From an uncultured Alphaproteobacteria bacterium (lineage in GTDB: Bacteria > Pseudomonadota > Alphaproteobacteria > Rs-D84): a stretch of DNA of 36,958 nucleotides. Below, in pieces: positions 1 to 36,958 of this stretch; position 1 is the stretch's first letter, and every line of letters begins with the position of its first letter. The stretch spans positions 1-36,958 of the forward strand of contig CALCEG010000006.1 in the NCBI GenBank assembly GCA_937900435.1, written 5' to 3'. Below the pieces are notes generated by a model, which saw nothing but the letters and a program-made list of their open reading frames with translations, did not search any database and was not told where the DNA came from. Made by a program: the position numbers and the translations under genes.

Positions 1-33
1 TGGCGCGGGCGATGGTTCCACAACCTTTAATTT
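1..33 (+). repeat. IR-L: left 33-bp inverted repeat of the putative invertible tail-fibre segment (also present as 36904-36936)
   Basis: TGGCGCGGGCGATGGTTCCACAACCTTTAATTT is the exact reverse complement of 701-733. The match extends to 38 bp with one mismatch. It encodes GAGDGSTTFNL of the tail-collar motif. Confidence 0.95.
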
Positions 34-55
34 ACCGAATAAATCCCCAGAAAGA
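1..55. repeat. Window-end overlap, copy 1 (identical to 36904-36958); seam of a circular assembly of about 36,903 bp
   Basis: The 55-mer tggcgcgggcgatggttccacaacctttaatttaccgaataaatccccagaaaga is at both window ends. It lies inside one uninterrupted reading frame (tail fibre), so it behaves as a k-mer-sized assembly overlap, not a biological terminal repeat. Confidence 0.95.
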
Positions 56-430
56 ACAATTATCGAAACACAAGAGCCAACAGCAGAAAACAATTATACT
101 TGGTATCGTTTGTATAGTGATGGTTGGGTTGAACAAGGTGGTATACAAACAGGCGTAGGAAGTTATGGAAGAGTAGCTATAATATTACCGGTCACAATGG
201 TAGATAATAACTATCAAGTGTTTGCCGGTATGCGAGATTTGGGGAATAGTTGGTATACAAATAACTCAAATTTTGTATCGCTTGCAGGCGGAACCGATGT
301 CGCAGGAACGGTGTCCGATGCCTCGGCAACAGGCTTTCAAGTTCAAAAGCAATCGCTTCATACTTGGTATGTATGCGGAAAATCAGCACGCGGTGCTTCA
401 CAACAGGGGATTATTTGTATTAAATATTAG
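2..430 (+). CDS. Tail fibre, 3' part (continuation of 35561..36958 across the seam): end of the collar motif plus the currently expressed tip V1
   Basis: The frame of bases 2,5,8... is open from the window start to TAG 428-430 and is in phase with the ORF that runs off the window end. The tip contains Y-x-x-Y-S-D-G-W-V-E-Q-G-G ... P-V-T-M ... T-G-F ... W-Y-V-C-G-K, resembling common phage fibre C-terminal tip domains. Confidence 0.9.
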   Translation, partial: GAGDGSTTFNLPNKSPERTIIETQEPTAENNYTWYRLYSDGWVEQGGIQTGVGSYGRVAIILPVTMVDNNYQVFAGMRDLGNSWYTNNSNFVSLAGGTDVAGTVSDASATGFQVQKQSLHTWYVCGKSARGASQQGIICIKY

Positions 431-700
431 TATTTGATACATACGATAGCCTGTGCACCTGTTGCTTGGGTTAAATCGACATATAAATTAGATGGGTAGT
501 AATAGTTTCCCGGTTCTGCAACAGTGCCACCAATTCCATAAACTTTTGTCGAACCATAAACAGCCAATAACGTTTTGCTTGGCGCGCCCCCATTGTTTGC
601 TTTCAACATATGTAATGGCTCTCGAACGCCAGTAAATGTATCGTTCGAGCTAGTTTTAACCGCTGCTATTGTTCCAAGCGGTAAAACAGATTGTGTCGGC
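34..700. other. Putative invertible segment (667 bp) carrying two convergent tail-fibre tips, V1 (+) and V2 (-)
   Basis: Bounded by the perfect IRs 1-33 and 701-733. Both IR copies are in frame with a downstream tip-coding segment. The two tips meet stop-to-stop at 427-430. Confidence 0.6.
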
Positions 701-733
701 AAATTAAAGGTTGTGGAACCATCGCCCGCGCCA
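427..733 (-). other. Silent alternative tail-fibre tip cassette V2 (no start codon, RBS or promoter of its own)
   Basis: The minus-strand frame reads GAGDGSTTFNLPTQSVLPLG...AQAIVCIKY-stop, starting exactly at IR-R. The 61 codons upstream in the track ORF (to 915) are AT-rich junk and overlap the start of gene 907 on the other strand. Confidence 0.75.
701..733 (-). repeat. IR-R: right 33-bp inverted repeat of the putative invertible segment
   Basis: aaattaaaggttgtggaaccatcgcccgcgcca is the reverse complement of bases 1-33. Confidence 0.95.
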
Positions 734-906
734 ACTACAAAAAAACTATTGATTTTTCTACTGTTATTATAAATAATATAAATGTTAAAAAAGGATTTTT
801 TTATGTTATTTGAAAAAACTAAACTTTTCGTAAAAACGACACTTGTAAAATCGCAAGCGTTGTTTGTAAAACAGCCCCAAATAACAAAATAACAAAAGAG
901 GTCAAT

Positions 907-15700: not shown

Positions 15701-18700
15701 GTATGCCAGACGCAAACGACATTGAAATCGCACGCAACAATGGCATAGATTCATTCTTGATACTTGATAAAAACGAAGTTCCATCGAAACTTGTATTGCT
15801 GGACGGTTCGGTTGTCGGTCTTAAACCTGGTGCAAAAGTTCCATCAGGAAAAGATTTGTATAAACCATCGACACCACGTCAATTATTCCAAACAGAGGAA
15901 AGAAATCTTGTTGTAACACACGGTATATCGCTGCGTAATCTGCAAAAGGTTCTTGACCTTGGTGGAATGGCTGCACCGTCAATAGCGATTTCAAGTATAA
16001 ATGAACCTTTGACTGATTTTGGCACAATTACATTGGTTGGTAACAAAGATATTATCGACCCAGCCAAATCAGCAAATCGTGTTTATGACCGTGATATTTG
16101 GTCGCCAACAATGCCGTTCAAAACATACCCAAAGGCAAAGACCAAATCGGCAAATGCTTTCCGTGATAAATTCAAAAGCACATTTGTAAAAGCAGACGAC
16201 GAAGCAAACTTGGGCGAAGTGTTATATTATGCACAAAATTCAGCAAGACCAGAACAGGCAGTGCAAAAGTTCGAATGGTCCAGAGGTGCAAAACTATATT
16301 ATGTTGAAAACGTTTTGGGTAAAAAAATAGATATTCCAACACGTTCAGTCAACAAAGACGATATTTGGGGATTGCACCCAGACCAAGAATTTATCGACGC
16401 ATTAAAAGACGTTGATTCGATGGCACCTATGGACGAGGTTATAAAAAAAGTAACCGACGCTGCACGTGCTTTGATAAACCGCACTGATTACGGTAAATAT
16501 ACGAAAGAATACAGGGAAACATTTTTAAGTGATTACCCAGAGGATTATTCAGGTAATTTTAATCGTATGGACAGTATTTTATATCAAACCAAAAAATATG
16601 CACAAAATATAGGCGAAACCGAAGTCGATACAAGTGCACTTGGTAGAATCTTGGACGAATATGCAAACAACGACCAAAATTATCAGAAATGGGCAGAATC
16701 ACAAATTGAGGAAATGTTAGGTTCGCCAAAAGTCGAAGTCGGTAAAAAATTGCTTGACTGGAATCTTGAAAACGTAACAAAAGCAATGTTAAAAGCAGGC
16801 ACAGTGAACGGTCAAAATTCATTGGTTTATGGTGTTGGTAAAGTAATCTCTGCTGGTTCCACAAGATTTACGTCAATCAAAGGTATCAAAGAAGCAGCAA
16901 AGAATCTTAAAACAAAGAAAGACGCAGCCGAATTGACCGACGCACTTGGTGCAAGAATGCAGGATTTCACAAATAAATTTATGTCCGATTCGGATTTCAC
17001 AAATTCGATGGAACAAAAAGAAGCAGCATTTAGGGCTTTGGGAACATTGGCTGCAAGTGGCAATCCAACAAAAGAAAGATTGCAAAGCGTTCTGAACTAT
17101 GAATTGGCAAACAAAGAAAAATACCCAGACGAATTATTGCAAGAGGGTGTCGATATTGCCAAGGCAACCAAAGAAGTTGTGCGTTATTACTTTGAAGCGA
17201 AACCACAACGTTCAGTTTTATTGACCGAGTTTTCTGGTGCAGTAATGCCAGACGATTCGTCATACGACGAAATGGCACAAAAATTAAAAGACCTTGGTTT
17301 GCAAGTTGAACGCACAGACAATTTACAACAAGGTATTCGCAACATTGAAAATTCAGTTGGGGGTGTATTATTCCAGGGACGCAAAGTCAATGGATTTTAT
17401 GACCCAGAACTTGAAGTAATTGTTTTGGGACGCAGTTCTAATACTGGAACATTGCCACACGAAATGTCGCATTACTGGGCAAACACCATATTCAACCTGG
17501 TTAAATCAGGCAAATATAACAATAATCCTGATTTTATGGCACAGGCGATGGGAATGTTTAGAATGTTGGGCGTTGGTATGAACCAAGATACATTGACACG
17601 CGACCAACAAGAAATGTTTGCGTCAATGACCGAATCATATATCTTTGGAATGGCAAGAGTGCCAGAGGGAATAAAATTACCAATGACAGCATTCTTTAAT
17701 TGGGTTCCTGCAAAATACAAATCATTCCAAGACATAGGTTATATCAATTCCGAGGGGAAAGTTATAAACCCTATATTTGATAAATATGCTGTTGAATGGT
17801 TTAATGCGTGGTATGCAAATGGAACATTGCCGTCCATCGACGCTTCGCCTTTAATGATGGAAAATTCAAATGGCGAACAAGATGGTCGTATAATTCCATC
17901 AACAGCAGAAGTTATGAAAACGCGTGAAGCCGAAATGACAGCAGAAGCCGATAGATTAAAACGCGCACGCACAGACCAAACAACCGAAGCAATGGAATCA
18001 ACACCTTTGAGTGAACGCGCCGCAGCCGCAGCCGCCGAGGTTGAAATCGAATCCAAACCAGATAATTTGAAATTGAGTGAACCGCCGGCAGAAAAGAAAA
18101 AGAACATTGTGTCCTATTTGATTCCAGGGCGTGGAACAAACACACGCGAGGGAATGTTCCAAGTAGCGCGCGATTATCTTAAAAAAGAACCAGAACATGC
18201 ACGCGAAATCGCTTTTGGCAATCCTGCACTGGTTCAAAATGATACAGGAGTTGATAGGGCTATCTTGATTCGTGCGTTGATGGAGGAATACAAACAAGGC
18301 GACCCAGAATATGCAGAATTGTATCATAACCTGGCTGAAACAGTATCATTGGCTGGTAAAACCCCAGGTTTATCAAATGATATGAATTTCCAATATTATC
18401 GCGTTGCAATGGACCGTATAAGAAACGGCATGGAAGCAAAAGCAGCGATTAAATATGCAGGCACACGCAACCTAAACAAAGCCAGACGGACATTCAATGC
18501 TGATATTGACGCATTTATACAAGAACACGCGGCAAAGATATTGAATACAGCACCTGATACAGATAAACGCGAAATGCTGATAAAGCAAATGTTAGCAGAG
18601 GCAACCCTTAAATTCGGTGGGGAAACAGCAACCCAATTGAATCAAGAGGATTTGCGTCGTGGTCGCGGTATCAAATCAGGCGAAAGAGAGGTATTTACTG

Positions 18701-20196
18701 AATGGGCAAATCGTGAAATTCGCAAAAAGTTGAAAGCGGAACCTGATATAAATACCATAAATAAAACTATGGAATTATCAGAAAAAGCACAAAAAGCCCT
18801 TAAATCAGTCAATTCAGACGATTTAGCGGAAGCACAAGCAGCAGTAAAACAAATCCGCGAATGGCAAATGTTTGTTGCCGACCAAGATGTACCTGCAACT
18901 TGGTATTCAAAATTGATTGGTTCGTGGTATCCAAAAGCAATGTTGTATAACATCAATACGCATAGCGTGAATATCTTGGGAACGGGTATAAACTATGCTG
19001 TGGTCGAGGCTGCACTCGAAATTCAATATGGGAAAGGGAAAGTATCAAAAAGCGCAGTGGATGCAGAAAAAAAGCGTTTGCGTGCATTATACGATTCTAA
19101 TTTGGTAAGTTTAGCGGGTATGATGGACCCAACAAGCCCAACATTATTACATGGTGAACAATACAATCCACGCGAGGGTAGAGGTTTAGGCGCAAAGGCT
19201 GTAAACTTTTCAATGGATTTATTGGGTAAAGAAGATAACTGGTTCAAGGTCCAAGTATATGTTGATGCATTAAATCGTATTGCCACCGCAGACGCAGCAA
19301 AAACAGGCGAAAGTCCAACAGAATTATTTAGACTTTACAAGCGTTTAGATAATCCAAAAGACAGTCGTGCATACAAAGCGCATCAAGAAGCAGTTGTAAT
19401 AGCCCAGACAGCAGTATTTCAACAGACAGGAGTATTATCAACAGCATTGAAAAAAGGTCGTGATGCTTTGAACAATTTAACTATATTTGGATATAAAACC
19501 GAATTGGGAACATTGTTAGCACCATTTGTCAAAACACCAGCGAACATCGTGGAACAAGGCGCACGTGCAATCGCCGCCCCGATAAGAGTCGCAAATCACG
19601 CAATAAAAAGCGATTGGAAAAATTGGTCTGTTCAAGATACCTTGGATGTTGGGTATTTTGTATTAGGTTGTGCGCTTGGTGCGATTGCTATGATGACGGA
19701 CTATGAGCCGCCCTATGAAGCACCACACAAATACGACCCGAATAAACCTTATGATTCAATAAAAATCTTTGGTGGAGCGTGGATTAAACTTGATACATTT
19801 GGTATCGCGGCGGTTCCAATGCGTGTCATGGCGTCTTTAATGACCGGAAAAGGGCTTGGTGTAGCCGGAACACTGAACGATATACCTTTGGTAGGAGATT
19901 TAGCGGAATCTTATCAACAAGCGGCACAGATAGAACAAGCCCCATACACCAAAGGAACAAGATTTATTGCAAATCTGGGGTATAATCGTATCAATACAGC
20001 AGTTCCAGCAATAGCGCGTTATACTATCGCAGCGATGCACCCAGCGGACATCGGTTTGGAAAATGTGGATTTTGGATTGCCAAAAACAGGCATCGGTCGT
20101 AAGATTAAAAGACAATACGGATTGGACGGTGGCGACACAACCACGAACGATATATTGCGTATATTCTTTAACAGATTGAAGATTGCTGAGGAATAA
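12718..20196 (+). CDS. Giant 2,492-aa virion-associated polyvalent/ejection protein candidate (gp16 position)
   Basis: A single uninterrupted ORF with ATG directly after the upstream stop. It has Gly-rich hydrophobic segments near both ends, a ParB-like GNGR segment, and an HEMSH zincin motif. It is the last gene before the double terminator. Confidence 0.6.
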   Translation: MEKDFLTDQTLSLDDAIAKAQSITPDDDPQFDPVLPSQLNTAEKTPSKHTMSMDDALKTYRLKMDSIEGLTRIANGDITTHFWGNLAKGAGDFIQEMKMQPAKFDGMVYRAFNGHVWPNMTEDEAVRLMDSATSYVANQERLRNIIVQSQGGADSLVRPLGSGALQVLSLGVVGLMTGGAGIGALAGLQEASDISQEFAEKAMDENGGTLRGYDNREDALYAALHGIISGYIETKLGVENLFTGAAKNTFASRLGTQILKSAAGEGAEEFLQEGSKFLFENMAGKNNRTGGEFLKDALTNAVYGAILGGAFSIPMYQVNKLRINKALRAQGFTDVEADEMTNDMIDNAKKSILQEVDTRSQLREHYGEQWTGLKNKVIIALENAGWKETHPEIDLEKYAADNADDIVRPLFNMSNKFGIDTRDLLQLADIDVIDNAIYLKPMNLGSAEVIANRIREKKEQVKRLNILARTGAGNPETKRTLNTQIELLQKYYEKLTGDRLNLARRTRAGKARLDAEVLASTAPAVSETIANIDISQMSSGEPTTQIREKLDGQPFVYVGDKQLPVEYKVVPMDEVIASHIGQDINTNYSLKELQNRAQRGSRTDVSILQSRAAKIQPENLGIAYNTQNGAPVVNDKGEVIAGNGRYEVLRMTDEKGRARYNKYLESLGLDLTGIKDPILVRVMHNLTPEQQIAVADASNVSATSAFDNASQAAQDAKLLKGTTGVTDFLNKIPIESRQGLFLANDRVNKVALDRRYNDALMMWLLNNDTELYEELYLMGGITQKIQSALNQSIPQLMSLENQYPDVGLRQDLANALKRLPQISRQADFAFAISQVEIDDGRPDLFNENALLYVLNFGKNTKTWEGTGADRLQVGLTLPEFFDTYTQKATTNQENIGQVDMFGQPLAVEQSRGDLLAETLTLAFPREFQDGAATSRDMKAVFLTRAQTAPTQLNQMDLLDTVQPSLFADDTSTASAVRNLPWETPVNVSNPTFFNRMPDANDIEIARNNGIDSFLILDKNEVPSKLVLLDGSVVGLKPGAKVPSGKDLYKPSTPRQLFQTEERNLVVTHGISLRNLQKVLDLGGMAAPSIAISSINEPLTDFGTITLVGNKDIIDPAKSANRVYDRDIWSPTMPFKTYPKAKTKSANAFRDKFKSTFVKADDEANLGEVLYYAQNSARPEQAVQKFEWSRGAKLYYVENVLGKKIDIPTRSVNKDDIWGLHPDQEFIDALKDVDSMAPMDEVIKKVTDAARALINRTDYGKYTKEYRETFLSDYPEDYSGNFNRMDSILYQTKKYAQNIGETEVDTSALGRILDEYANNDQNYQKWAESQIEEMLGSPKVEVGKKLLDWNLENVTKAMLKAGTVNGQNSLVYGVGKVISAGSTRFTSIKGIKEAAKNLKTKKDAAELTDALGARMQDFTNKFMSDSDFTNSMEQKEAAFRALGTLAASGNPTKERLQSVLNYELANKEKYPDELLQEGVDIAKATKEVVRYYFEAKPQRSVLLTEFSGAVMPDDSSYDEMAQKLKDLGLQVERTDNLQQGIRNIENSVGGVLFQGRKVNGFYDPELEVIVLGRSSNTGTLPHEMSHYWANTIFNLVKSGKYNNNPDFMAQAMGMFRMLGVGMNQDTLTRDQQEMFASMTESYIFGMARVPEGIKLPMTAFFNWVPAKYKSFQDIGYINSEGKVINPIFDKYAVEWFNAWYANGTLPSIDASPLMMENSNGEQDGRIIPSTAEVMKTREAEMTAEADRLKRARTDQTTEAMESTPLSERAAAAAAEVEIESKPDNLKLSEPPAEKKKNIVSYLIPGRGTNTREGMFQVARDYLKKEPEHAREIAFGNPALVQNDTGVDRAILIRALMEEYKQGDPEYAELYHNLAETVSLAGKTPGLSNDMNFQYYRVAMDRIRNGMEAKAAIKYAGTRNLNKARRTFNADIDAFIQEHAAKILNTAPDTDKREMLIKQMLAEATLKFGGETATQLNQEDLRRGRGIKSGEREVFTEWANREIRKKLKAEPDINTINKTMELSEKAQKALKSVNSDDLAEAQAAVKQIREWQMFVADQDVPATWYSKLIGSWYPKAMLYNINTHSVNILGTGINYAVVEAALEIQYGKGKVSKSAVDAEKKRLRALYDSNLVSLAGMMDPTSPTLLHGEQYNPREGRGLGAKAVNFSMDLLGKEDNWFKVQVYVDALNRIATADAAKTGESPTELFRLYKRLDNPKDSRAYKAHQEAVVIAQTAVFQQTGVLSTALKKGRDALNNLTIFGYKTELGTLLAPFVKTPANIVEQGARAIAAPIRVANHAIKSDWKNWSVQDTLDVGYFVLGCALGAIAMMTDYEPPYEAPHKYDPNKPYDSIKIFGGAWIKLDTFGIAAVPMRVMASLMTGKGLGVAGTLNDIPLVGDLAESYQQAAQIEQAPYTKGTRFIANLGYNRINTAVPAIARYTIAAMHPADIGLENVDFGLPKTGIGRKIKRQYGLDGGDTTTNDILRIFFNRLKIAEE
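14411..14870 (+). other. ParB/sulfiredoxin-like segment inside the giant protein (tentative)
   Basis: VVPMDEVIASH...PENLGIAYNTQNGAPVVNDKGEVIAGNGRYEVLR resembles the ParB N-terminal-domain pattern (hydrophobic-x-G-x-x-R after a PxxL...P-hydrophobic-hydrophobic segment). Confidence 0.3.
17377..17650 (+). other. HExxH zincin-like metallopeptidase signature inside the giant protein
   Basis: NGFYDPELEVIVLGRSSNTGTLPHEMSHYW (HEMSH at 17458-17472), followed by QEMFASMTESYIFG, which supplies a possible third ligand Glu. Confidence 0.4.
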
Positions 20197-20201
20197 TTTA
20201 T

Positions 20202-20226
20202 AATCGCCAAGGTTGGCGATTTTCAA
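20202..20226 (+). terminator. Late-operon terminator 1
   Basis: Stem AATCGCCAA / TTGGCGATT around GG, followed by TTTTC. Confidence 0.55.
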
Positions 20227-20287
20227 GGAATCCGCGGGGTTATTGTCGCCAAGGTTGGCGTTTTTCCAGAATTCCGCGGGTTTCAGG
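20204..20287 (+). repeat. Tandem 42-bp repeat (2 copies); each copy is a hairpin, a T-run and a CCGCGG palindrome
   Basis: TCGCCAAGGTTGGCGATTTTCAAGGAATCCGCGGGGTTATTG versus TCGCCAAGGTTGGCGTTTTTCCAGAATTCCGCGGGTTTCAGG, about 33/42 identical. Confidence 0.85.
20247..20265 (+). terminator. Late-operon terminator 2
   Basis: CGCCAA-GG-TTGGCG followed by TTTTT. Confidence 0.7.
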
Positions 20288-20349
20288 TTGACAAAATAAG
20301 CAAAACCAAATACACCAAGGGATTTAGAGTGTGTTTTTGGTTTTGTCAA
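20288..20349. repeat. Large hairpin / inverted repeat with two alternative registers
   Basis: CAAAACCAAA (20301-20310) pairs with TTTGGTTTTG (20336-20345). Alternatively, TTGACAAAA (20288-20296) pairs with TTTTGTCAA (20341-20349). Confidence 0.7.
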
Positions 20350-20353
20350 CATA

Positions 20354-20400
20354 AAATTGCTTTAATTTGATATTATGACGATATTATATTAAAGCAATTT
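20354..20400. repeat. 13-bp perfect inverted repeat with a 21-bp spacer that holds GATATTAT twice
   Basis: AAATTGCTTTAAT (20354-20366) and ATTAAAGCAATTT (20388-20400); the spacer is ttgatattatgacgatattat. Confidence 0.85.
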
Positions 20401-20473
20401 AGGCGGAAAGTAGGCGAGATTCCAGAAGCCGAAATCACGATAAAGGGCTTTAACATCAGTAATCGACGGATTA

Positions 20474-20518
20474 CCGCAATCGCAAAATGAACGGACACGA
20501 AGCCGATTGGGTTTTTTT
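20474..20518 (+). terminator. Weak terminator-like element ending a GC-richer island
   Basis: CC(G)CAATCG pairs with CGATTGGG (8 bp with one bulge, 21-nt loop), followed by a T7 run (20512-20518). Confidence 0.3.
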
Positions 20519-20625
20519 ATACTATAAGAATCAGGAATAAAAATCATTATTATCAAAAATAAGGTCTGGACATATTGGAAATCTGGGAAAAGTATATTTT
20601 TGATAGAAATAATGGCATAAAACCG

Positions 20626-20673
20626 TATGGAAAGATATATGGAATGTATGATGGATTCAAATATGGAATAAGT
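20626..20673. repeat. Four tandem 12-bp iteron-like repeats (core ATGGA at exact 12-bp phase)
   Basis: The units are tatggaaagata, tatggaatgtat, gatggattcaaa and tatggaataagt. ATGGA starts at 20627, 20639, 20651 and 20663. Confidence 0.8.
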
Positions 20674-20678
20674 CGTCA

Positions 20679-20741
20679 ATATGTTAAAAAAACTATAATT
20701 ATTTAACATATCGCAAAAATAACTATAAAGTTTTAACATAT
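20679..20741. repeat. TTTAACATAT motif three times (one inverted), including a 21-bp direct repeat 30 bp apart
   Basis: ATATGTTAAA is at 20679-20688. AACTATAATTATTTAACATAT (20691-20711) and AACTATAAAGTTTTAACATAT (20721-20741) are 18/21 identical. Confidence 0.8.
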
Positions 20742-20759
20742 TTTGAAATTATGTTTTAC

Positions 20760-20768
20760 ATTATACCA
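20760..20768 (-). promoter_or_regulatory. Possible extended -10 promoter (TGGTATAAT) reading leftward into the non-coding region
   Basis: The reverse complement of attatacca is TGGTATAAT. There is no good -35. It is divergent from the rightward promoter at 20826. Confidence 0.35.
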
Positions 20769-20825
20769 GGAATACGTAAAAGATAATTTACATTTATCGA
20801 TTTTTTCCATTTTGGAAATAACCAC

Positions 20826-20855
20826 TTGACATTATATGATGGTCTGTGTCATATT
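20826..20855 (+). promoter_or_regulatory. Early promoter P-A (TTGACA-18-CATATT with TG extension)
   Basis: TTGACA at 20826-20831, TGtCATATT at 20847-20855. It shares CTTGACATTATAT with the promoter at 25813. Confidence 0.6.
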
Positions 20856-20861
20856 ATATAT

Positions 20862-20945
20862 GAAGCAAATTTTTTCATGTTTTTTCATGCTTTCTGTGCA
20901 AACCCCCAGTTTCTCTCTCCTCATTTTAACTGGGGAATTTTTTTT
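20862..20945 (+). ncRNA. Candidate ~85-nt promoter-to-terminator transcript (sRNA or attenuated leader)
   Basis: The predicted start lies just after P-A and the end is at the terminator 20904-20945. There is no RBS-preceded ORF. The terminator loop is CU-rich (tctctctcctcatttt). Confidence 0.35.
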
Positions 20946-20952
20946 ATTTTTT
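20904..20952 (+). terminator. Rho-independent terminator between the two early promoters
   Basis: CCCCAGTT (20904-20911) / AACTGGGG (20928-20935), 16-nt loop, then AA plus T8 and a second T6 run. Confidence 0.7.
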
Positions 20953-20955
20953 CGC

Positions 20956-20983
20956 TTGACTATTATAAAATGTATGTTATAAT
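20956..20983 (+). promoter_or_regulatory. Early promoter P-B (TTGACT-16-TATAAT)
   Basis: TTGACT at 20956-20961, TATAAT at 20978-20983. About 45 bp are nearly identical to the promoter at 25229. The leader holds a 9-bp hairpin, GGAATCCTG/CAGGATTCC (21021-21045). Confidence 0.7.
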
Positions 20984-21068
20984 ATGTATACATAAAGGTC
21001 ATAAGGGGGCTAAAAAGTTTGGAATCCTGCCCTTATCAGGATTCCATCAAACTATAAGGGAGTTTGAA

Positions 21069-21281
21069 ATGAGATATACAACTAAACTTTATATTATAAT
21101 CGTTATTTTAACGACAGTGTTGTTTTGGCGTGAATGTGTTCATGCGAATCGTTTAACTTATATAATTCAACACACTAATAATTTTTGTGAAAATCAAGTT
21201 GCAGACGCGATTCAATCAACAAGTGATGAATTGTTGGTTGCTTGCGAAGCGCGTATCGACCAAATCTTATTAAATAAATAA
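21069..21281 (+). CDS. Small membrane-anchored protein (70 aa)
   Basis: Internal ATG preceded by AAGGGAG. The TM segment is LYIIIVILTTVLFW. The upstream part of the track ORF covers promoters and a terminator. Confidence 0.65.
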   Translation: MRYTTKLYIIIVILTTVLFWRECVHANRLTYIIQHTNNFCENQVADAIQSTSDELLVACEARIDQILLNK

Positions 21282-21292
21282 AAGGTGTAAAT

Positions 21293-21559
21293 ATGATTAT
21301 TAAAATAGTTCAAGAGCAACATTTTATCGAGGGCGATAGATATAAAGCGTTTTTATATCAAAACAACGAATGTCTTTGCTGTTTGGTATCTGGCGTAAAA
21401 GCAAAGGATTATTTAGATATGTGCGAAAAATTAGACGGGTTAAAAATTAGGTTAGAGCAACTTGGTAATTCTGTTGATATTATTACAAAGTTCGAACCAG
21501 ACCCAAATTTCGCAACAGAAGCCGAAGCCAATGAATGTATAATGAATAAAGGTTATTAA
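21293..21559 (+). CDS. Hypothetical 88-aa protein
   Basis: ORF track. AAGGTG lies upstream. Confidence 0.75.
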   Translation: MIIKIVQEQHFIEGDRYKAFLYQNNECLCCLVSGVKAKDYLDMCEKLDGLKIRLEQLGNSVDIITKFEPDPNFATEAEANECIMNKGY

Positions 21560-21560
21560 A

Positions 21561-21689
21561 ATGATTAAAGTTGTTGGTTATATAAACGGAAAAAGCATTT
21601 GTGATTATTTGCCTGATACACCAGAAAACAGGCGTTTAATCCAAACTGCGATATCTTATGGTTTAACCGCAGCAATTGTGAGGTTATAA
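21561..21689 (+). CDS. Hypothetical 42-aa protein (below the track cutoff)
   Basis: ATG 21561 follows AAAGGT. It reads MIKVVGYINGKSICDYLPDTPENRRLIQTAISYGLTAAIVRL, and its stop overlaps the next start (TAATG). Confidence 0.5.
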   Translation: MIKVVGYINGKSICDYLPDTPENRRLIQTAISYGLTAAIVRL

Positions 21690-22546
21690 TGAAAAAGAAA
21701 AAACAAACTTTACCGGCAGAAAAAATATCAATTACAAGCATGTCTGGATTGATTCATAATGATTCCCCAGAATTGCCTTGGCGCAACGAACAAACAGGCG
21801 AATTAGAAAACTGTCGTAAAAAATTGATTTACGCGGAGGAGTTATACGAAGCGTTGGGATTGGCTAAATCACATCGTGCGCGTTCTATTGCGAAATGGAA
21901 ATCGTGCGGATTTGAAAATATAGACTGGAACGAACGCGAAATTGTTGGAAAAAAACGCAATACAACATCTGCTTATTTGCGTGTTGAATTTGCAAAAAAA
22001 ATATGTATGCAAATACAAACCCCGATAGCAGACGCAGTGCGCGATTATCTTATTAAAGAAACAGCGGCGTTTTGGGCTGCTGCAAAGCGTCAAGCCCTTG
22101 CGGTTGCCAACCCAACAATTCAACCCCAATTTTCATTATCAGATGCGGTTCGTCAAGTTGTGGAAAAAGCCGTTAAAGATGCTGTGGAAATTGCGGTTGC
22201 TGAAACAAATCAACGCAATCAAACAGCGTCTAGGGAATTGTTTAATCAAAAATTTGCACTGTTGGAAGATATGAAAACTGAACACGTGGACGAAAGAAAC
22301 AAAGCAAATTTACGCGCGCATATATCAAATATGGTACGAAAACATTGTTTTGAACATGGTGAGGATTATAAAACTTTTTGGGAAAAATGTTATAACTCAT
22401 TCAAGATTCGTCATAAATCTTGCGATTGGTATTGGGCTTTTTCTAAATCCACAAATAAAGTTGGGTTTATTGCTGAAAATTTACCAATAAAATATTTGCA
22501 AGAGTTCCAGCAGATAGTAACATCTTTTATACTAGAATACAAATAA
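21689..22546 (+). CDS. AntA/antirepressor-like DNA-binding protein (function tentative)
   Basis: LIYAEELYEALGLAKSHRARSIAKWKS ... YLRVEFAKKICMQIQTPIADAVRDYLIK resembles the AntA/KilAC-type pattern. Confidence 0.45.
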   Translation: MKKKKQTLPAEKISITSMSGLIHNDSPELPWRNEQTGELENCRKKLIYAEELYEALGLAKSHRARSIAKWKSCGFENIDWNEREIVGKKRNTTSAYLRVEFAKKICMQIQTPIADAVRDYLIKETAAFWAAAKRQALAVANPTIQPQFSLSDAVRQVVEKAVKDAVEIAVAETNQRNQTASRELFNQKFALLEDMKTEHVDERNKANLRAHISNMVRKHCFEHGEDYKTFWEKCYNSFKIRHKSCDWYWAFSKSTNKVGFIAENLPIKYLQEFQQIVTSFILEYK

Positions 22547-22566
22547 AGCACAGAAAGGAGTAAAAT

Positions 22567-23064
22567 ATGCAGAAAAAACAATATAATTACAAGTCGCTTG
22601 AAAAAGCCACCAAAGCAGAATTGCAAGCGTGGATTTCAGAAGTGTTGTCATATTTGCGAACACTGCCACAAAATAATTACGAAGTAAGTCCCGAAACAAT
22701 AGATGCATTTTGTAATGACTGGACAGGTAAAAGCACCGACGCGGTTGCTGTAACCAATGATTACTTTGCTGAATTTTGGCGTTTATACCCACGCAAAGTC
22801 GGTTCCAAAGCAAAGGTCAAACAAGCATTCAATAACGCGGTTATTCGCGGTTCCACACCAGAACAGATACTGAATGGGACCGCTATGTATGCACGAATCC
22901 GTAATGAAATTACCAAAAAAGACCCATCAAAAGAATGTTTTACGGCACACCCGACAACATTCTTGAATCAAGATAGATTCTTGGCGGTTGATTCAATGCG
23001 TAAGGAATTACTGGGTTTAATCGGTAATACGCCAATGGCGATTGCCACTGTAACAGGATTTTAA
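22567..23064 (+). CDS. Hypothetical 165-aa protein with the FW-x-x-YP-x-K-x-G-x-K motif common in phage early regions
   Basis: FAEFWRLYPRKVGSKAKVKQAF ... AHPTTFLNQDRF. AAAGGAG lies upstream. Confidence 0.7.
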   Translation: MQKKQYNYKSLEKATKAELQAWISEVLSYLRTLPQNNYEVSPETIDAFCNDWTGKSTDAVAVTNDYFAEFWRLYPRKVGSKAKVKQAFNNAVIRGSTPEQILNGTAMYARIRNEITKKDPSKECFTAHPTTFLNQDRFLAVDSMRKELLGLIGNTPMAIATVTGF

Positions 23065-25846: not shown

Positions 25847-26425
25847 ATGAAAGAAATTTGGAAACCTGTTTATATAAAAGAATTTGCGGACCTTTATCAA
25901 GTGTCTAATCTTGGTCGTGTTAAAAGATTACAACATACCATCACAAGAAAAACTAGATATGGTTATATTAGAGATTTTGTTTTTCAAGAAAAAATTATTA
26001 AACCGCATATATGGGGAACTTATTATCACTTAGGATTACATAATAACGGAAAAAACAAATGGGTTTATTTGCATAGGTTAGTTGCGATGGCGTTTGTTGA
26101 TAATCCTAATGTATTGCCACAAGTAAATCATAAAGACGGAAACAAATTTAATTGTTGTGCCGATAATTTAGAATGGGTATCGGCTTCTAACAACATTAAA
26201 CACGCTTACGATATTGGATTAAACAAAAACAGTAAAAAAGTTCAATGTATTGAAACAGGCAAAATATATAATTCTATAACAGAAGCAGCGAAAGAGTTAA
26301 AAACAAGTCCGAAATATATAAGTGCTGTCTTAAATAAATTAAAATATAAAAACAAAGCAACAAAAACTGGTTTTTATACACCAAAAACCGTAAAAGGCAA
26401 TCATTTTAAGTTTATAAAGGAGTAA
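25847..26425 (+). CDS. Free-standing HNH homing endonuclease (NUMOD4 + HNH_3 type)
   Basis: EIWKPV...YQVSNLGRVKR is a NUMOD4-like N-terminus. VNHKDGNKFNCCADNLEWVSASNNIKH is the HNH motif, followed by a C-terminal helix-turn-helix-like module. Confidence 0.85.
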   Translation: MKEIWKPVYIKEFADLYQVSNLGRVKRLQHTITRKTRYGYIRDFVFQEKIIKPHIWGTYYHLGLHNNGKNKWVYLHRLVAMAFVDNPNVLPQVNHKDGNKFNCCADNLEWVSASNNIKHAYDIGLNKNSKKVQCIETGKIYNSITEAAKELKTSPKYISAVLNKLKYKNKATKTGFYTPKTVKGNHFKFIKE

Positions 26426-30753: not shown

Positions 30754-30778
30754 TCAAAAAAAACAAAAGGAGTAAAAA

Positions 30779-31084
30779 ATGGCTAAAAATTACGCAATAG
30801 GCAGACATTTATCGACCTGGTGGAACGAGGGTCAAGATGGCAAACAAGGGTATCGTAACGTCGTTATCAGACGCAGATACAAAGACAAGGCAGGTTTAGA
30901 CGCAGAGGAAAAGATTACTTTGTTTGTATCTGAATTTTTAGAATTGTGTGCTGAAATGGAAGCAATGAAAAACAAAATCTTATTGCTGCCACGCGAAATC
31001 GTTAAAAAAGAGGACAACACCCCAGAACCCAGTTTAGATGTATCGGGTGTGCCAGACGAAATACCTTTTAACAATGACCGCTAG
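30779..31084 (+). CDS. PC4/YdbC-like ssDNA-binding protein (tentative)
   Basis: GYRNVVIRRRYKDKAGLDAEEKITLFVSEFLELCAEM follows the PC4-fold pattern (hydrophobic-IR-x-x-Y-x-D/K-x-G ... K-G/I-hydrophobic-x-L ... E-F/W-x-x-L). The C-terminal region contains PDEIPF. Confidence 0.45.
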   Translation: MAKNYAIGRHLSTWWNEGQDGKQGYRNVVIRRRYKDKAGLDAEEKITLFVSEFLELCAEMEAMKNKILLLPREIVKKEDNTPEPSLDVSGVPDEIPFNNDR

Positions 31085-31131: not shown

Positions 31132-33561
31132 ATGCCTATGACTAATGTTTTATCAGTAAATGATGTTATGGCGGACTGTCCAGAGAAATTGCTGCGGTAT
31201 GTGCCGTGGCTATTAAATGGACTTGAAGCACGTAAAAAAGCACGCGAACGCGGTGTTGACCCAGATAATATGCCACCATTGCCTATACTGGCAATCAAAG
31301 GTTGGCGTTTTTCTGGGAAAGAATTACAGTGGGACGCTTATGTAAAAACCCCCAACGGTAATATTTTTATTCAAGATTGTGTGCCTGGAACAAAAATATT
31401 TGGTGTTGATGGAAAAATTTATACTTGCACGGGTCATTTTCCGCAAGGGAAAAAACCTTTGTATAAAGTCAGTTTTAATGACGGAACAAGTGTAATTGCC
31501 GGATTAAATCATTTGTGGTCTGTCTATACCAGCAAAGATAATTTAATAGTAAAAACAACGCAAGATTTAATTAATAGCGGTGTTGCTAAAAAACATCAAA
31601 ACGGAGGTTTTAAGCATAAATTCCGTATTCCAATATGTAAACCTGTTGAATTTACAAAAAAAGAATTACCAATACACCCATATGTTCTTGGGGTTTTACT
31701 TGGTGATGGCAGTTTGTGTGGTGAACATATACATATATCAAACTGTGATATGGAAATTTATAGTAAAATCAAAGCATTGGGCTATAAATTATCAGCACCA
31801 AAAGAATATATAAACCCAAAAGGCAAATGTATTCGCTATGATTTATTAAACCGTCCACATAGTTATAACAAAGATTTAGAAAAGTTAAAACTAAAAGTTC
31901 ATGGACATAATAAATTCATACCAGATATATATTTACAGGGCAGTATAGAACAAAGACTTGAATTATTACGCGGTTTGATGGATACAGATGGTTCAATATC
32001 AAATGGTAGTGTAAGTTTTTCAACAAGTGCCCCCAGATTAAAAAATGATATTTGTGAACTGGTTCGTTCATTGGGCGGACTTGCAAAAATTCACAATTAT
32101 GTAGACAAACGGCGGGAAACAGAAAATTATACAATAAGAATAAAAACACCAGAAAACCCATTTTGTTTACCAAGAAAAGCAAATAAATGGGAATATAAAA
32201 AATTATCTAAAAGAATAACCAGTATTGAATACGATAACGATAATGAGGCGTATTGCATAACAACAGATGCGCCAGACCACTTATTTTTAACAGATGGTTA
32301 TATTGCAACGCATAATTCCCAGTTTGGCGTTCGATTTCAAGTGGGTGCGATTCTTGATGGGTGGGCAACGTCTGGTATGATTGCTGCAATTACGTCCGAT
32401 GGTGCAAAAGATACAATGCAGTTGTTGGACAAGGTTTTAGAGGAAGCCGAGGAACCGACACAGTTCCAGCGTCAATCAGACCACCCGATTCGTATTTTAT
32501 CGCAAGGCGAACCTATTTATATCGAATACCTGAATAAAGTCGATTCCAAAGCACGTCAAACGTCCGCTGATATGCTTATGATTGAGGAATTGGAAAAGTG
32601 GAACGAAACCGCAGGTAAAGCGTCGTTATTGACAATGATTCGACACTTTGACTGTATTATCGCATTATCAAATGATTTCCCACGCTGGGTTAAAAAACTA
32701 TTCGAATCGTTTGGTGCTGTGTTTATCGAAGTTACATATATGGACAATAAGAAGTTGGAAAAGTCCATCAAAGACGGTTTGGAACGTCAACGTATTGAAG
32801 ACCCCGACGGTTGGGCACGCGACGTCGCATATTTACCAACAGGTGGTTCGAATCGTGTGTTTTCAGAACGTGCCATCGCAAACGCATTCGCACCAAAGAA
32901 TCCAAAGTTCCAACGCAAAACGTCTATTCTTGCAATCGACGTTGGTGCTGGTGGTCCTGATAATTCTGTTATTATTCGGTGTGATTTTGATGGTTATGCT
33001 ATCGAAGCCGAGATATTGACAGACGAATCCATAGATTCCGTTGCTTTGTGTCGCAGGGTAAGTGATTATCGTGTGTCCCAGCGTTGCGACGAGGAAGTAT
33101 GGGATTCACAGGGCGTCGGGTTAGGAATAATGCCACAGCGCGCACCGCGTGAAATGTGGGCAACGTCAGGTATCGTTCCGTTCGGTGGTGCAGCAGTTGA
33201 TAAATCCGCGTATTTCAACGCCAGGGCAGAAGCAATGTTGCTAACAGCCAATGGTCTTATGAAAGGAAATATCAAACTGATTGGACTAACCGAAACCCAG
33301 AAAGCCCAATTTGAAGCCGAATGTCGTGCCCATACTATCAAACCAAGCGAACTTGCGCGCACAAATACGCACGCAATACAGTTAGATAGTAAGGAAATTG
33401 TCAAAAAACGCCTTGGCGGTTTATCGCCAAACATTCTTGACGCTTTATCGATGGGTGTGTGGCGGTTATTGACATACACGATTCATAATGATAACATATT
33501 ACCGACGAACAATTTTTATGGTTCGTCTGGTGCAGACGATACAGGAGTACCCGGACTATGA
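31132..33561 (+). CDS. terL: Terminase large subunit, interrupted by an intein (477 aa after splicing)
   Basis: Walker A is reconstituted as GWRFSGK|S across the intein. Walker B-like DMLMIEE is present. The RNase H-like nuclease part contains SILAIDVGAGGPDNSVII. Confidence 0.85.
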   Translation: MPMTNVLSVNDVMADCPEKLLRYVPWLLNGLEARKKARERGVDPDNMPPLPILAIKGWRFSGKELQWDAYVKTPNGNIFIQDCVPGTKIFGVDGKIYTCTGHFPQGKKPLYKVSFNDGTSVIAGLNHLWSVYTSKDNLIVKTTQDLINSGVAKKHQNGGFKHKFRIPICKPVEFTKKELPIHPYVLGVLLGDGSLCGEHIHISNCDMEIYSKIKALGYKLSAPKEYINPKGKCIRYDLLNRPHSYNKDLEKLKLKVHGHNKFIPDIYLQGSIEQRLELLRGLMDTDGSISNGSVSFSTSAPRLKNDICELVRSLGGLAKIHNYVDKRRETENYTIRIKTPENPFCLPRKANKWEYKKLSKRITSIEYDNDNEAYCITTDAPDHLFLTDGYIATHNSQFGVRFQVGAILDGWATSGMIAAITSDGAKDTMQLLDKVLEEAEEPTQFQRQSDHPIRILSQGEPIYIEYLNKVDSKARQTSADMLMIEELEKWNETAGKASLLTMIRHFDCIIALSNDFPRWVKKLFESFGAVFIEVTYMDNKKLEKSIKDGLERQRIEDPDGWARDVAYLPTGGSNRVFSERAIANAFAPKNPKFQRKTSILAIDVGAGGPDNSVIIRCDFDGYAIEAEILTDESIDSVALCRRVSDYRVSQRCDEEVWDSQGVGLGIMPQRAPREMWATSGIVPFGGAAVDKSAYFNARAEAMLLTANGLMKGNIKLIGLTETQKAQFEAECRAHTIKPSELARTNTHAIQLDSKEIVKKRLGGLSPNILDALSMGVWRLLTYTIHNDNILPTNNFYGSSGADDTGVPGL
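31321..32316 (+). mobile_element. 332-aa intein with a LAGLIDADG homing endonuclease, inserted in the terminase P-loop
   Basis: Block A-like ELQWDAYVKTPNG. Block B is GTSVIAGLNHLW. The two LAGLIDADG motifs are YVLGVLLGDGSL and LLRGLMDTDGSI. Block F is EAYCITT and block G is GYIATHN, followed by Ser+1. Confidence 0.8.
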
Positions 33562-33875: not shown

Positions 33876-34644
33876 TGTCGTTGTTGATGGTGGCGGTCAA
33901 GGTGGTGCAGCCACTATCGACTTGTCTTTGTATTTCAAAGACGGGGAACCAGGCGTTTATGACCCAGAAAAGATTACCGCACTTGTAAAAGAACGCGATA
34001 ACAAAGCGAAATCTGCGTCATACTTTCAATCGCAATTTATGCAAAAGAACGAAGTGCCACAATCCATCGACGGTTATGCGGAACATTTTAAGGCGGATTC
34101 TGCTTATGAAAAGTTTATGGACAAGCAAGAAGTTCAAGACGCTTTGAAAGAAATCCGCGAATGGGGTTTAAAAAATAACATTGGACCAAATGCAGTTAAT
34201 TCATTTTCAGATATGATTTTGAAAAAATTGGTTGCTGATGGTGTTTTGGATTCACGGACCCCAGAACAAATCGCAGAAGCAGAAGCCAAGAAAACAGCCG
34301 AAGCCAAGGAACAATTAAAGCCTTTCTTGGACACAGTGCATCGTTCTTTCGAGGACCAAACAAACTTATTGAATAAATTCTTTGATGCACCATCTGTATT
34401 TACAAATGACCCAGAAACCAAATCTTTCTTGCAACAGATAGCAAACGATTCGGCAACTGGTTATAAAATTGTGTCTATGCTGATTGATGCAATTGAATTT
34501 GGTGGTTATAAGGCATTACCAACCCAAAGCGAATCAATGGGAGTGGGCGCGGCTGAATTTTGGAACAAATACAATGCTGAACCAGACCCAATGAAGCGCG
34601 ATGCAATGTTAGCGGAATTTGAAAAAATGAACCCAACAAAATAA
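33787..34644 (+). CDS. Scaffolding-like or internal head protein candidate (285 aa, acidic, helical)
   Basis: AAAGGAG lies 6 nt upstream. The call rests on composition and position in the morphogenesis module only. Confidence 0.35.
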   Translation: MDPQNNQPTNQPATPTNTPIEPTQGNQPSNVVVDGGGQGGAATIDLSLYFKDGEPGVYDPEKITALVKERDNKAKSASYFQSQFMQKNEVPQSIDGYAEHFKADSAYEKFMDKQEVQDALKEIREWGLKNNIGPNAVNSFSDMILKKLVADGVLDSRTPEQIAEAEAKKTAEAKEQLKPFLDTVHRSFEDQTNLLNKFFDAPSVFTNDPETKSFLQQIANDSATGYKIVSMLIDAIEFGGYKALPTQSESMGVGAAEFWNKYNAEPDPMKRDAMLAEFEKMNPTK

Positions 34645-34658
34645 GAAAGGAGTGAATT

Positions 34659-35465
34659 ATGGCTAAAAACTGGTTTATTGAAGCCAATAAATCCCAAGAC
34701 CCAGAAGTCAAGGATTTGTTAAAACAGTATAACGAATTGGACGCAAACGCGGACGATTATGCAGAAAAGAAAGCTGAATTGGTTGCGACCATCAAAGCAA
34801 AATTGGAAAGTTCTGTTGAACCTGAAACACCAGAAGTCAAAGCAGAAATGGACAAGGTTGCGGACGAAGTGGTTGCTGCTGAAAACGCTGATACCGCTGC
34901 CATCGACGCTGAATTAGACGGTCAAAACGATTCGGAAAAACCGAATAGTCAAGCAGAACCAGAAGCAGAACCTGAATCAGAGGAAATGCCATCTGGTTTT
35001 TATTATACCGAAACGGACGCAGCAAAGGCAAAAACCATTGATGAACTTGTTGTAATGAAAAAAGCATGTCGTGAAGAAATTGCTCGTCTTGAAAAAACAC
35101 GCCTGAAACATGGAACATACAAACAAAACCGCGAATTAGATATGGCAATTTGGAAAGTGCGCCGTATTATCAGTGTTGCATTTAAGCGTGAATTAGCGTT
35201 AAAAGAACGCGCACGCCGCATCAGGAACGCAGGTCGCGTGTCGAGCATTGCGTTAAAGCGTGCCAGATTCGTAAAACTTATGCGTCAGGGCATTTCTATC
35301 ACAAACATAACAAGCCACCCAGAGGGTGTGAAAAAAGAGGAATTGGTGGACGTTTTAGACGAAGCAACCATCGAAGCGTGCCGTAAAAATAATTCACGCT
35401 TTCCTGCTATGTGGTTGAGATGGAAAGAAAAATTTATTGACAAGAAAGACGGTAATAAGCAATAA
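34659..35465 (+). CDS. Hypothetical 268-aa bipartite protein (strongly acidic N-half, Arg/Lys-rich C-half)
   Basis: ORF track. AAAGGAG lies upstream. Confidence 0.75.
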   Translation: MAKNWFIEANKSQDPEVKDLLKQYNELDANADDYAEKKAELVATIKAKLESSVEPETPEVKAEMDKVADEVVAAENADTAAIDAELDGQNDSEKPNSQAEPEAEPESEEMPSGFYYTETDAAKAKTIDELVVMKKACREEIARLEKTRLKHGTYKQNRELDMAIWKVRRIISVAFKRELALKERARRIRNAGRVSSIALKRARFVKLMRQGISITNITSHPEGVKKEELVDVLDEATIEACRKNNSRFPAMWLRWKEKFIDKKDGNKQ

Positions 35466-35560: not shown

Positions 35561-36958
35561 ATGAATCTAAATTTCTTATGTTGTATCGGTGCAGAATTAA
35601 AAAATAGCACACAACAAACAACACGTATGACCCAAGTTTATTTGTATCGTGCATTTGAAAGTGAAACAATCGCCGATATGTTGTCGACTGGATTTTTCAA
35701 TCAAGCCCTTGGAATTATACGGCAAGACGATTTACTGTTATTATATAGTCCAAATGAAACGAATCCACGTTGGGTTTATGCTCGTGTATCAAGCGCGACG
35801 CGTGATGGCATTGAAATTTCAAAAGTCGATGTCCAAGCACAAGATATATCAGTTGATACAACAGGTTATTCCAATTTATCAGGAAATAATTTACAGGAAA
35901 TATTAAATAATCTTGATACAACCATAACCACAATAAACGATACCTTTGTCCGCAAAGACGGAACTTCGATAATGTCCGCCCCATTAAAATTTATTGCGGG
36001 CTCTTTTCGCGGGGCTGTTGGTCCATATTTGAACGGTGTGGAATTTTATAATGTTGGTAGTGATGGTGCTTTGGGTTCTGCTATTGCTAGATTGACATCA
36101 ACAAATGGTTTAACGCCAAACACTGACAATGTTTTAGATATAGGTTCTGCAACCAAAAGATTCAAAGATTTATATATTGCACGTGTTATCACAGGTGTAA
36201 TCAATAACGGTTATGATATTGCAGTTCCAGCGACAGCGCAACCCGAAACATTGGCATTAAAGAGTGAAGTGGATTTAGCGGCTAATTCTGGTCGTATGAT
36301 TACAGACGAGGGCGTATGGTTTGCCAAAATGTATGCAGCAAGCACAGTGCCAACTGGTGCCGAATATGATGGCAAAAACTATGCGGACTTTTCACAGGTT
36401 GACGGTGATAATAATCCAGTAATTAAAATATACACAGGTGCTAGCGGGGCTTGGACACTGACAGAAACAATCACACCGCCAGCGGATTATGACGGTTATG
36501 TTCCAATTACAAGTAAAATATGGGACATTATAGACCAAACAGGTCAGCAAGGCGGACGTGTATTGTGGAACCATCAAACAAAAACATTTACACCGTATCC
36601 GCAGATTATATCGCTTGATAATCAACAGATTACAAACAGTTCTTTTTCTGGCGGAACAATTACAAGTTCAACATTTGATGGAGAAGCGACTTTAAGCGGT
36701 GTATCAACAGCACCAACGCCAACTGCAAGTTCGCCGAATAACCAAATAGCAAATAAAGAATATGTTGCACAAATAGCAGTGCCAGCAGGAATGATAGCAC
36801 CATTTGCGGGTTCAAGCGCACCTGCCGGCTGGTTGGTTTGCGATGGTTCGGCGGTATCAAGAACTGAATATGCGGACTTGTTTGCGGCAATTGGAACAAC
36901 TTATGGCGCGGGCGATGGTTCCACAACCTTTAATTTACCGAATAAATCCCCAGAAAGA
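35561..36958 (+). CDS. Tail fibre, N-terminal and constant part (open at the window end; continues at base 56; 590 aa on the circle)
   Basis: ATG 35561 follows AAAGGA. There are 466 codons with no stop up to the window end (under-called in the ORF track because no stop is reached). Near the end it carries the Phage_Tail_Collar-type motif PAGWLVCDGSAVSRTEYADLFAAIGTTYGAGDGSTTFNLP. Confidence 0.9.
   Translation, partial: MNLNFLCCIGAELKNSTQQTTRMTQVYLYRAFESETIADMLSTGFFNQALGIIRQDDLLLLYSPNETNPRWVYARVSSATRDGIEISKVDVQAQDISVDTTGYSNLSGNNLQEILNNLDTTITTINDTFVRKDGTSIMSAPLKFIAGSFRGAVGPYLNGVEFYNVGSDGALGSAIARLTSTNGLTPNTDNVLDIGSATKRFKDLYIARVITGVINNGYDIAVPATAQPETLALKSEVDLAANSGRMITDEGVWFAKMYAASTVPTGAEYDGKNYADFSQVDGDNNPVIKIYTGASGAWTLTETITPPADYDGYVPITSKIWDIIDQTGQQGGRVLWNHQTKTFTPYPQIISLDNQQITNSSFSGGTITSSTFDGEATLSGVSTAPTPTASSPNNQIANKEYVAQIAVPAGMIAPFAGSSAPAGWLVCDGSAVSRTEYADLFAAIGTTYGAGDGSTTFNLPNKSPER
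36904..36958. repeat. Window-end overlap, copy 2 (identical to 1-55); includes the IR-L sequence at 36904-36936
   Basis: See the 1-55 feature. Confidence 0.95.

Follow-up and report, generated by a model that had tools for sequence, protein, structure and literature searches.

Why should the circular genome of a phage have been cut by its assembler exactly at the first base of an inverted repeat? The question is raised by contig CALCEG010000006.1 of assembly GCA_937900435.1, deposited under an uncultured alphaproteobacterium (lineage Rs-D84). The window, by which we mean the whole stretch of 36,958 nucleotides analysed here, carries a podovirus-like genome in which the tail-fibre gene runs through the contig ends, and a perfect 33-bp inverted repeat lies where the constant part of that gene gives way to its tip. 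We find the seam to be tied to this repeat, by a graph logic that is sound and statistics that are strong. As to its cause, we lean toward orientation heterogeneity in the sample: genomes with the fibre tip in both orientations would have been sequenced together, the flipped reads being something we infer from the seam itself.

The contig seam and the inverted repeat

The first-pass annotation held that the same 55-mer stands at both contig ends and begins on the first base of the repeat. Both points are correct: positions 1-55 are identical to 36904-36958, no longer exact overlap joins the two ends, and the repeat starts at position 1. The overlap therefore closes the window into a circle of 36,903 bp. 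The fibre reading frame and its Collar domain continue unbroken through the seam, which makes the closure a real one; the seam is no physical genome end. No exact repeat in the genome, on either strand, is longer than the 33 bp of the inverted repeat, so that none of at least k could make a false cycle, and the size of the circle agrees with that of relatives of 36.0 to 36.9 kb. SPAdes picks k values of 21 to 55 automatically and circular replicons keep start/end overlaps in its output (PMC5481147). The length of the overlap fits an assembler whose largest k was 55, as the first-pass annotation had proposed for a circular path.

The positions that matter for the seam are as follows.

1..33, plus strand: left arm of the inverted repeat (33 bp, perfect); its translation, (Y)GAGDGSTTFNL, closes the Phage Tail Collar domain
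701..733, minus strand: right arm of the inverted repeat, the reverse complement of the left arm
36904..36958, no strand: terminal copy of bases 1-55, exactly identical; the k-length overlap left by a closed circular de Bruijn path
1..55, plus strand: seam 55-mer, made of the left repeat arm and the first 22 nt of cassette V1; a second incoming edge (A or T) is predicted if orientations are mixed
36882..36936, plus strand: second predicted branching 55-mer, made of the end of the constant part and the repeat, with out-degree 2 in the mixture
679..755, no strand: the two remaining 55-mers predicted to branch, 679-733 and 701-755, from the graph calculation

The 33-mer, TGGCGCGGGCGATGGTTCCACAACCTTTAATTT, lies in forward orientation at position 1 (which is also 36904) and reverse-complemented at 701-733, with the arms 667 bp apart, and has no further copy in the genome. 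Its outer boundary is sharp. Immediately 5' of it stands an A next to the fibre (36903) and a T at the other arm (the complement of 734), and beyond this point the two sides have no similarity; a check of the sequence there bears out both of the upstream contexts that had been quoted, ...ggaacaactta and ...gtttttttgtagt. At the inner boundary imperfect similarity goes on, for 45 nt at 91%.

Branching vertices were computed on the double-stranded de Bruijn graph, for the genome in a single orientation and for its mixture with the flipped isomer. The genome in one orientation is free of branching vertices at both k=55 and k=77; a pure population is therefore an unbranched cycle at k=55, and the position of its seam is arbitrary. 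With mixed orientations there are exactly four branch positions at k=55 (36882, 1, 679, and 701), and the 55-mer at 1-55 takes in- and out-degrees of (2,1), which is the branching vertex with two upstream contexts that the first-pass annotation had described. On a loop, a vertex that loses its last side branch cannot be merged with its neighbors and stays as the cut point. The junctions expected of the flipped state are T followed by TGGCGCGGGC...ACCGAATAAA, and ...CTTA followed by the repeat and GCCGACACAA. A seam placed at random would fall on the position-1 vertex with a probability of 2.7e-5 and on any of the four with a probability of 4/36,903, or 1.08e-4, which bears out the earlier estimate of once in ten thousand. 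At k=33, a standard intermediate value, the repeat branches in the pure genome without any inversion, and the only vertices are at 1 and 701; contigs from lower k therefore end at base 1 and cannot patch gaps at k=55 across the repeat.

The seam had been offered as circumstantial evidence that the switch is active. The half of this proposal that ties the seam to the repeat stands, on the graph logic and the probability of 1.08e-4; an active switch is a candidate cause, beside repeat-mediated chimeras and two fixed isomers.

Two other origins of the seam were considered and rejected. A rule by which circular contigs are rotated to their smallest k-mer does not apply, the seam 55-mer ranking 35,610 among 36,903 and being no lexicographic extreme. 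Nor is the seam a habit of the family or a hot spot of the fibre gene: two complete relatives have theirs outside the fibre gene and far from its 3' end.

Fibre cassettes, imported module, and related loci

The fibre locus around the repeat is composed of the following parts.

35561..36903, plus strand: constant part of the tail-fibre gene, whose open frame runs from 35561 through the seam to 430 (590 amino acids [aa]); member of a large homologous fibre family
1..430, plus strand: V1, the C-terminal fibre cassette expressed in the assembled orientation, with its stop at 428-430
427..733, minus strand: V2, the silent alternative cassette, in frame after inversion
410..441, no strand: imperfect palindrome at the meeting point of the two cassettes, whose stop codons overlap at 427-430; the junction sequence is also in locus L026
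734..789, plus strand: conserved outer flank of the module, 89-95% identical in the otherwise unrelated L019, L020, and L021; the module ends at about 789

Inversion of 34-700 replaces the 590-aa fibre ending in V1 by a 549-aa fibre with a V2 tip, and the Phage Tail Collar domain (PF07484) is found at residues 410-461 in both states. The two cassettes have in common only the motif encoded by the repeat and a ...CIKY end (...ICIKY in V1, ...VCIKY in V2). Fibre proteins of other phages have the core of V1 (QEPTAENNYTWYRLYSDGWVEQGG...) as their C-terminal domain. V2 matches at 40-47% identity the tips of bona fide short collar fibres (P0124-P0128), whose genes are followed by fibre-chaperone genes, and at 43% a cassette in L026, a locus linked to a resolvase. 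Of the stop-free antisense runs, 2% are at least 102 codons long, and the open antisense frame would by itself be no strong evidence; it is homology that makes the case for V2 as a real cassette. Judged in this way, the repeat flanks a real tail-fibre tip switch, in which two convergent C-terminal cassettes each come into frame after inversion. The collar-type relatives P0053 and P0054 were tried as comparators and dropped, as they have no repeat at that place.

A close counterpart to this arrangement is L026, a 54.7-kb phage contig (Logan SRR16606035_9561) whose resolvase is Gin-like (PF00239, E=9e-32; 31% identity to Gin at E=3e-17). Its ten sites homologous to the window repeat delimit five pairs of convergent cassettes, each 600-710 bp long, and one pair includes a V2-like cassette. 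The window repeat is identical to the expressed L026 site at 26 of 35 positions and has with it a common core, AAC-N-TTTAATTT-RCC, the two window arms reading ...ACAACCTTTAATTT followed by ACC and by GCC. In both loci the recombination sites lie on the codons for G-x-x-T-F-N-L-P, the convergent cassettes meet at a ...C(I/V)KY-stop palindrome (in a unit of 733 bp in the window), and the sequence at the cassette center is common to both at 89-94%. The two differ in extent and equipment: ten sites, five units, and a resolvase gene in L026, against a single unit with two sites and no enzyme in the window. Paired sites in L026 (7864-13271) mostly have the same base N in AAC-N-TTTAATTT (A/A, G/G, C/C, G/G, and G/A), and this base may mark the crossover dinucleotide and so limit which sites can pair.

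Alternative states of such a locus are seen in L028 and L029, which are 98% identical. The 1.5-kb constant part of a fibre locus with a V2-type cassette is inverted between them (L028 3096-4619 versus L029 4903-3380) and joined to different cassettes; they are therefore two natural isomers. Both are contigs of metagenome-assembled genomes (MAGs) binned to unrelated taxa, and their crossover sequence, AAACGGTGGTTTACC (NGGLPNIT), has a Din-like look. The exact 33-bp repeat and about 50 bp of outer flank also occur beside V2-type cassettes in the otherwise unrelated L019, L020, and L021. Taken together, L026, L028/L029, and L019-L021 establish that this type of module is real, mobile, elsewhere linked to an invertase, and elsewhere found in alternative states. 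The flank (about 50 bp; L019 192-238, L020 922-973) always adjoins the silent V2-type cassette. L020 and L021 are two independent assemblies of another phage, and they end, at 1295 and 1197, exactly at the cassette stop codon that corresponds to window 427-430, the center of the palindrome, which suggests that assemblies also break at the junction between cassettes.

Searches of larger collections returned little. The exact 33-mer has no match in IMG/VR and one in the JGI metagenomes, in a different phage; the repeat core has none in GTDB genomes, and the outer flank none in IMG/VR. Two window genes were looked up by their exact products, which are not on record. When the fibre of the flipped state was searched as a protein, its closest match had 79% identity, and none of the matches carried V2 on a full-length fibre of this lineage.

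The module has clear limits. Similarity to the fibres of the family ends at 36,600-36,622 and homology to the near relative L034 begins at 790, so the last 280 bp or so of the constant part (the collar domain, from about 36,620) belong to the module as well, and these breaks imply that a module of about 1.07 kb recently replaced the Mtd-type tip and retroelement of the relatives. It comprises the collar domain, repeat, V1, V2, repeat, and flank, and brought no enzyme along. A weak sigma70-like match lies in the outer flank at 749-777, reading away from the switch; in the promoter scan matches were no more numerous than in shuffled sequence.

Close relatives carry a reverse transcriptase domain (RVT_1) and a 97-aa partner right after a fibre with an mtd_2nd domain, in a slot equivalent to window 1-900. 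RVT_1 was found in L032-L036, and the slot has the following coordinates in four of them.

L032, 6585-7628: RVT_1 region
L033, 2957-4000: RVT_1 region
L034, 435-1478: RVT_1 region
L035, 4326-5369: RVT_1 region

The RVT_1 gene and its partner are probably a diversity-generating retroelement. A Pfam search of 40 open reading frames (ORFs) of the window yielded no reverse transcriptase, and the slot is filled by the inversion module. On this comparison of sequences, one phage family swaps fibre-diversification devices in the same genomic slot.

Explanations for the position of the seam

The explanation that we favor starts from a circular de Bruijn path at k=55 through the 36,903-bp genome with its invertible fibre-end module. 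Recombination between the arms would swap V1 for V2 on the fibre, and most genomes in the sample would be V1-joined, with a minority having the 733-bp segment flipped. The minority junction, consisting of the outer flank, the repeat, and V1, would place a second incoming edge on the 55-mer at 1-55; the assembler would discard this weak branch and, the vertex being unmergeable on a loop, cut the circle there. The inversion would be catalyzed in trans: a Gin-like serine invertase, encoded by the host or by a prophage in the same cell, would act on the site in the collar motif. A less likely route is short-homology recombination. That the module is an orphan flipped in trans (or by short homology), so that host-range switching is set by the last host cell, is a tentative proposal, and we regard it as possible but doubtful.

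Several observations weigh against a mixture of orientations or against a switch still in use. The genome has no recombinase of its own: Pfam searches of the 40 ORFs gave no serine or tyrosine recombinase (PF00239, PF00589), tblastn with Gin and the L026 resolvase against all six frames of the genome gave only matches with E of at least 1, and a PHROGs search of 10 ORFs gave no recombinase. Inversion would therefore need a trans-acting enzyme or short-homology recombination. Compared by eye, the repeat agrees poorly with the consensus of the 26-bp hix/gix/cix dyad. The phage looks lytic, which would leave little time in each infection for the slow switching typical of invertases. The public collections searched contain no second contig of the same species that could display the other orientation, and in L019, L020, and L021 the V2-type cassette stands beside the flank as it does in the window, with no flipped example. 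A phage with a 99% identical neighboring gene product has a retroelement in the module's place. Because the whole module is a recent import, the perfect repeat is no proof of ongoing use, and together with the intact cassettes it may reflect youth.

An artefact of the library could leave the same trace. Template switching or fold-back priming between the 33-bp arms would produce a few chimeric reads, and a chimera formed inside the repeat has the same junction as a true inversion and gives the same branching vertices. The arms are those of the genome's longest exact repeat and stand only 667 bp apart in a genome that encodes no recombinase, all of which suits such an origin, but the module belongs to a bona fide type of switch that has alternative states in other phages. 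Repeat-mediated chimeras are, moreover, usually rare, and assemblers drop low-count k-mers early. For short repeats, a search of the literature turned up no specific account of this artefact, and we think it unlikely to have produced the seam. The assembler's own workings are another candidate. In a multi-k run (21, 33, 55), a junction 56-mer that was missing and later gap-closed might anchor the loop at base 1, and an undocumented rule might have a similar effect. The length of the repeat is that of a standard intermediate k, at which the pure genome has vertices only at 1 and 701, and in simulation the junction gap appeared at a frequency of 0.2-5% at 10-20x coverage; however, the probability of a gap is near zero above about 20x, the account requires an additional gap-closing event, and the observed overlap is 55 bp and not 33 bp. 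In SPAdes, contigs of lower k enter as graph edges, adding no false junctions, and the provenance of k-mers is lost at the next k. We consider an origin inside the assembler decidedly unlikely.

A branch at the same vertex could also come from a co-occurring phage with the same repeat, an identical V1-type start, and another upstream context. The repeat and flank do circulate in unrelated phages (L019, L020, and L021) from similar, apparently ruminant-gut, samples, and the window module is itself a recent import. The known carriers, however, match the window exactly over 36-45 bp only and have other cassettes, so that the seam 55-mer is not in them, and any third genome would need identity over the full 55 bases with a break precisely where the repeat begins; the chance that such a genome caused the seam seems to us very small. 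Smallest of all is the chance of plain coincidence, an unbranched cycle cut at this base by accident. It is true that the seams of unbranched cycles are arbitrary and that the feature was spotted after the fact, but a chance cut at this vertex has a probability of 2.7e-5, or of 1.08e-4 if all four vertices are counted, and the exact base is the one that graph theory predicts.

The phage genome and its place among known systems

Beyond the fibre locus the genome has a podovirus-like gene set, with a T7-type connector, capsid, lysozyme, intein-split terminase, and YqaJ exonuclease. It looks lytic in having no integrase, and no cultured relative was found by megablast of 25 kb or by tblastn of the portal. 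The ORF that follows the switch (ORF192, 907-1485, 192 aa) was considered as a hidden recombinase and rejected: it has no family match and is kept beside retroelements in relatives without the switch. Nor is it specific to the switch, for a 99% identical copy adjoins the reverse transcriptase in L034, and 57% homologues likewise adjoin one in L035 and L036.

Several further features were observed. The large terminase subunit (31132-33561) has 809 aa, versus 477 aa in relatives, with an insertion of about 1 kb (about 31320-32314) that contains a LAGLIDADG domain and is probably an intein. A single gene at 12718-20196, one fifth of the genome, encodes a protein of 2,492 aa with ParB-like (ddrB-ParB) and PBECR5 nuclease domains, and at its end lies a 42-bp tandem duplication (20198-20281, 83% identical). 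The region at 20000-22000 has the lowest G+C content of the genome (0.34) and few convincing ORFs, and may be a regulatory or origin region. An HNH/NUMOD homing-endonuclease gene stands among the early genes at 25847-26425; its counterpart in L035 (7039-7668) lies between the ORF192 homologue and the capsid gene, and this endonuclease appears to be mobile. Many genes have a strong AAAGGAG Shine-Dalgarno motif in front of them (for example, at 22552-22569, 30766-30789, and 34644-34661), and such motifs argue against a Bacteroidota host. The whole genome of one relative is binned in a Bacteroidales MAG.

The locus resembles the classical invertible fibre switches of the Din family, Mu G with Gin, P1 C with Cin, and e14 P with Pin, in having an inverted repeat at the junction of constant and variable fibre parts and in the exchange, by inversion, of C-terminal receptor-binding parts in opposite orientation. 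The Mu repeat, at about 33-34 bp, is also similar in length. Unlike those switches, the window has no invertase gene in cis, its invertible segment consists of two cassettes only (733 bp) and has no fibre-assembly genes, and its site lies inside the collar motif, on the backbone of an uncultured, lytic-looking podovirus. Functionally it is also like the multi-cassette fibre shufflon of plasmid p15B (Min). The diversity-generating retroelements of the BPP-1 Mtd type occupy the same slot in the relatives and serve the same purpose, diversification of the fibre tip, but act by mutagenic retrohoming, in contrast to a two-state inversion without reverse transcriptase.

Tail-fibre and collar genes are among the targets of gene-altering programmed inversions, and loci without a nearby recombinase have been noted among these (PMC9881135, Milman et al. 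2023). Those inversions and the invertons detected from reads by PhaseFinder-type methods, in which both orientations of a repeat-flanked segment coexist, are of the same class as the event proposed here. Read-detected invertons rest on read counts, whereas the present case rests on the position of a contig seam; in the literature searched we found no published use of a contig seam or graph signature as evidence of inversion.

If the seam stems from chimeric reads or from the internal workings of the assembler, the case is a caution against over-reading the ends of contigs. If it is instead the scar of a flipped junction, public circular contigs bear a signal of invertible DNA that is independent of reads and could be screened for across millions of assemblies. 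A mixture of orientations would also imply that a phage lineage without cultured relatives has a tail-fibre host-range switch but no invertase of its own, and that a single phage family swaps either retroelements or inversion cassettes into the same slot of its genome.

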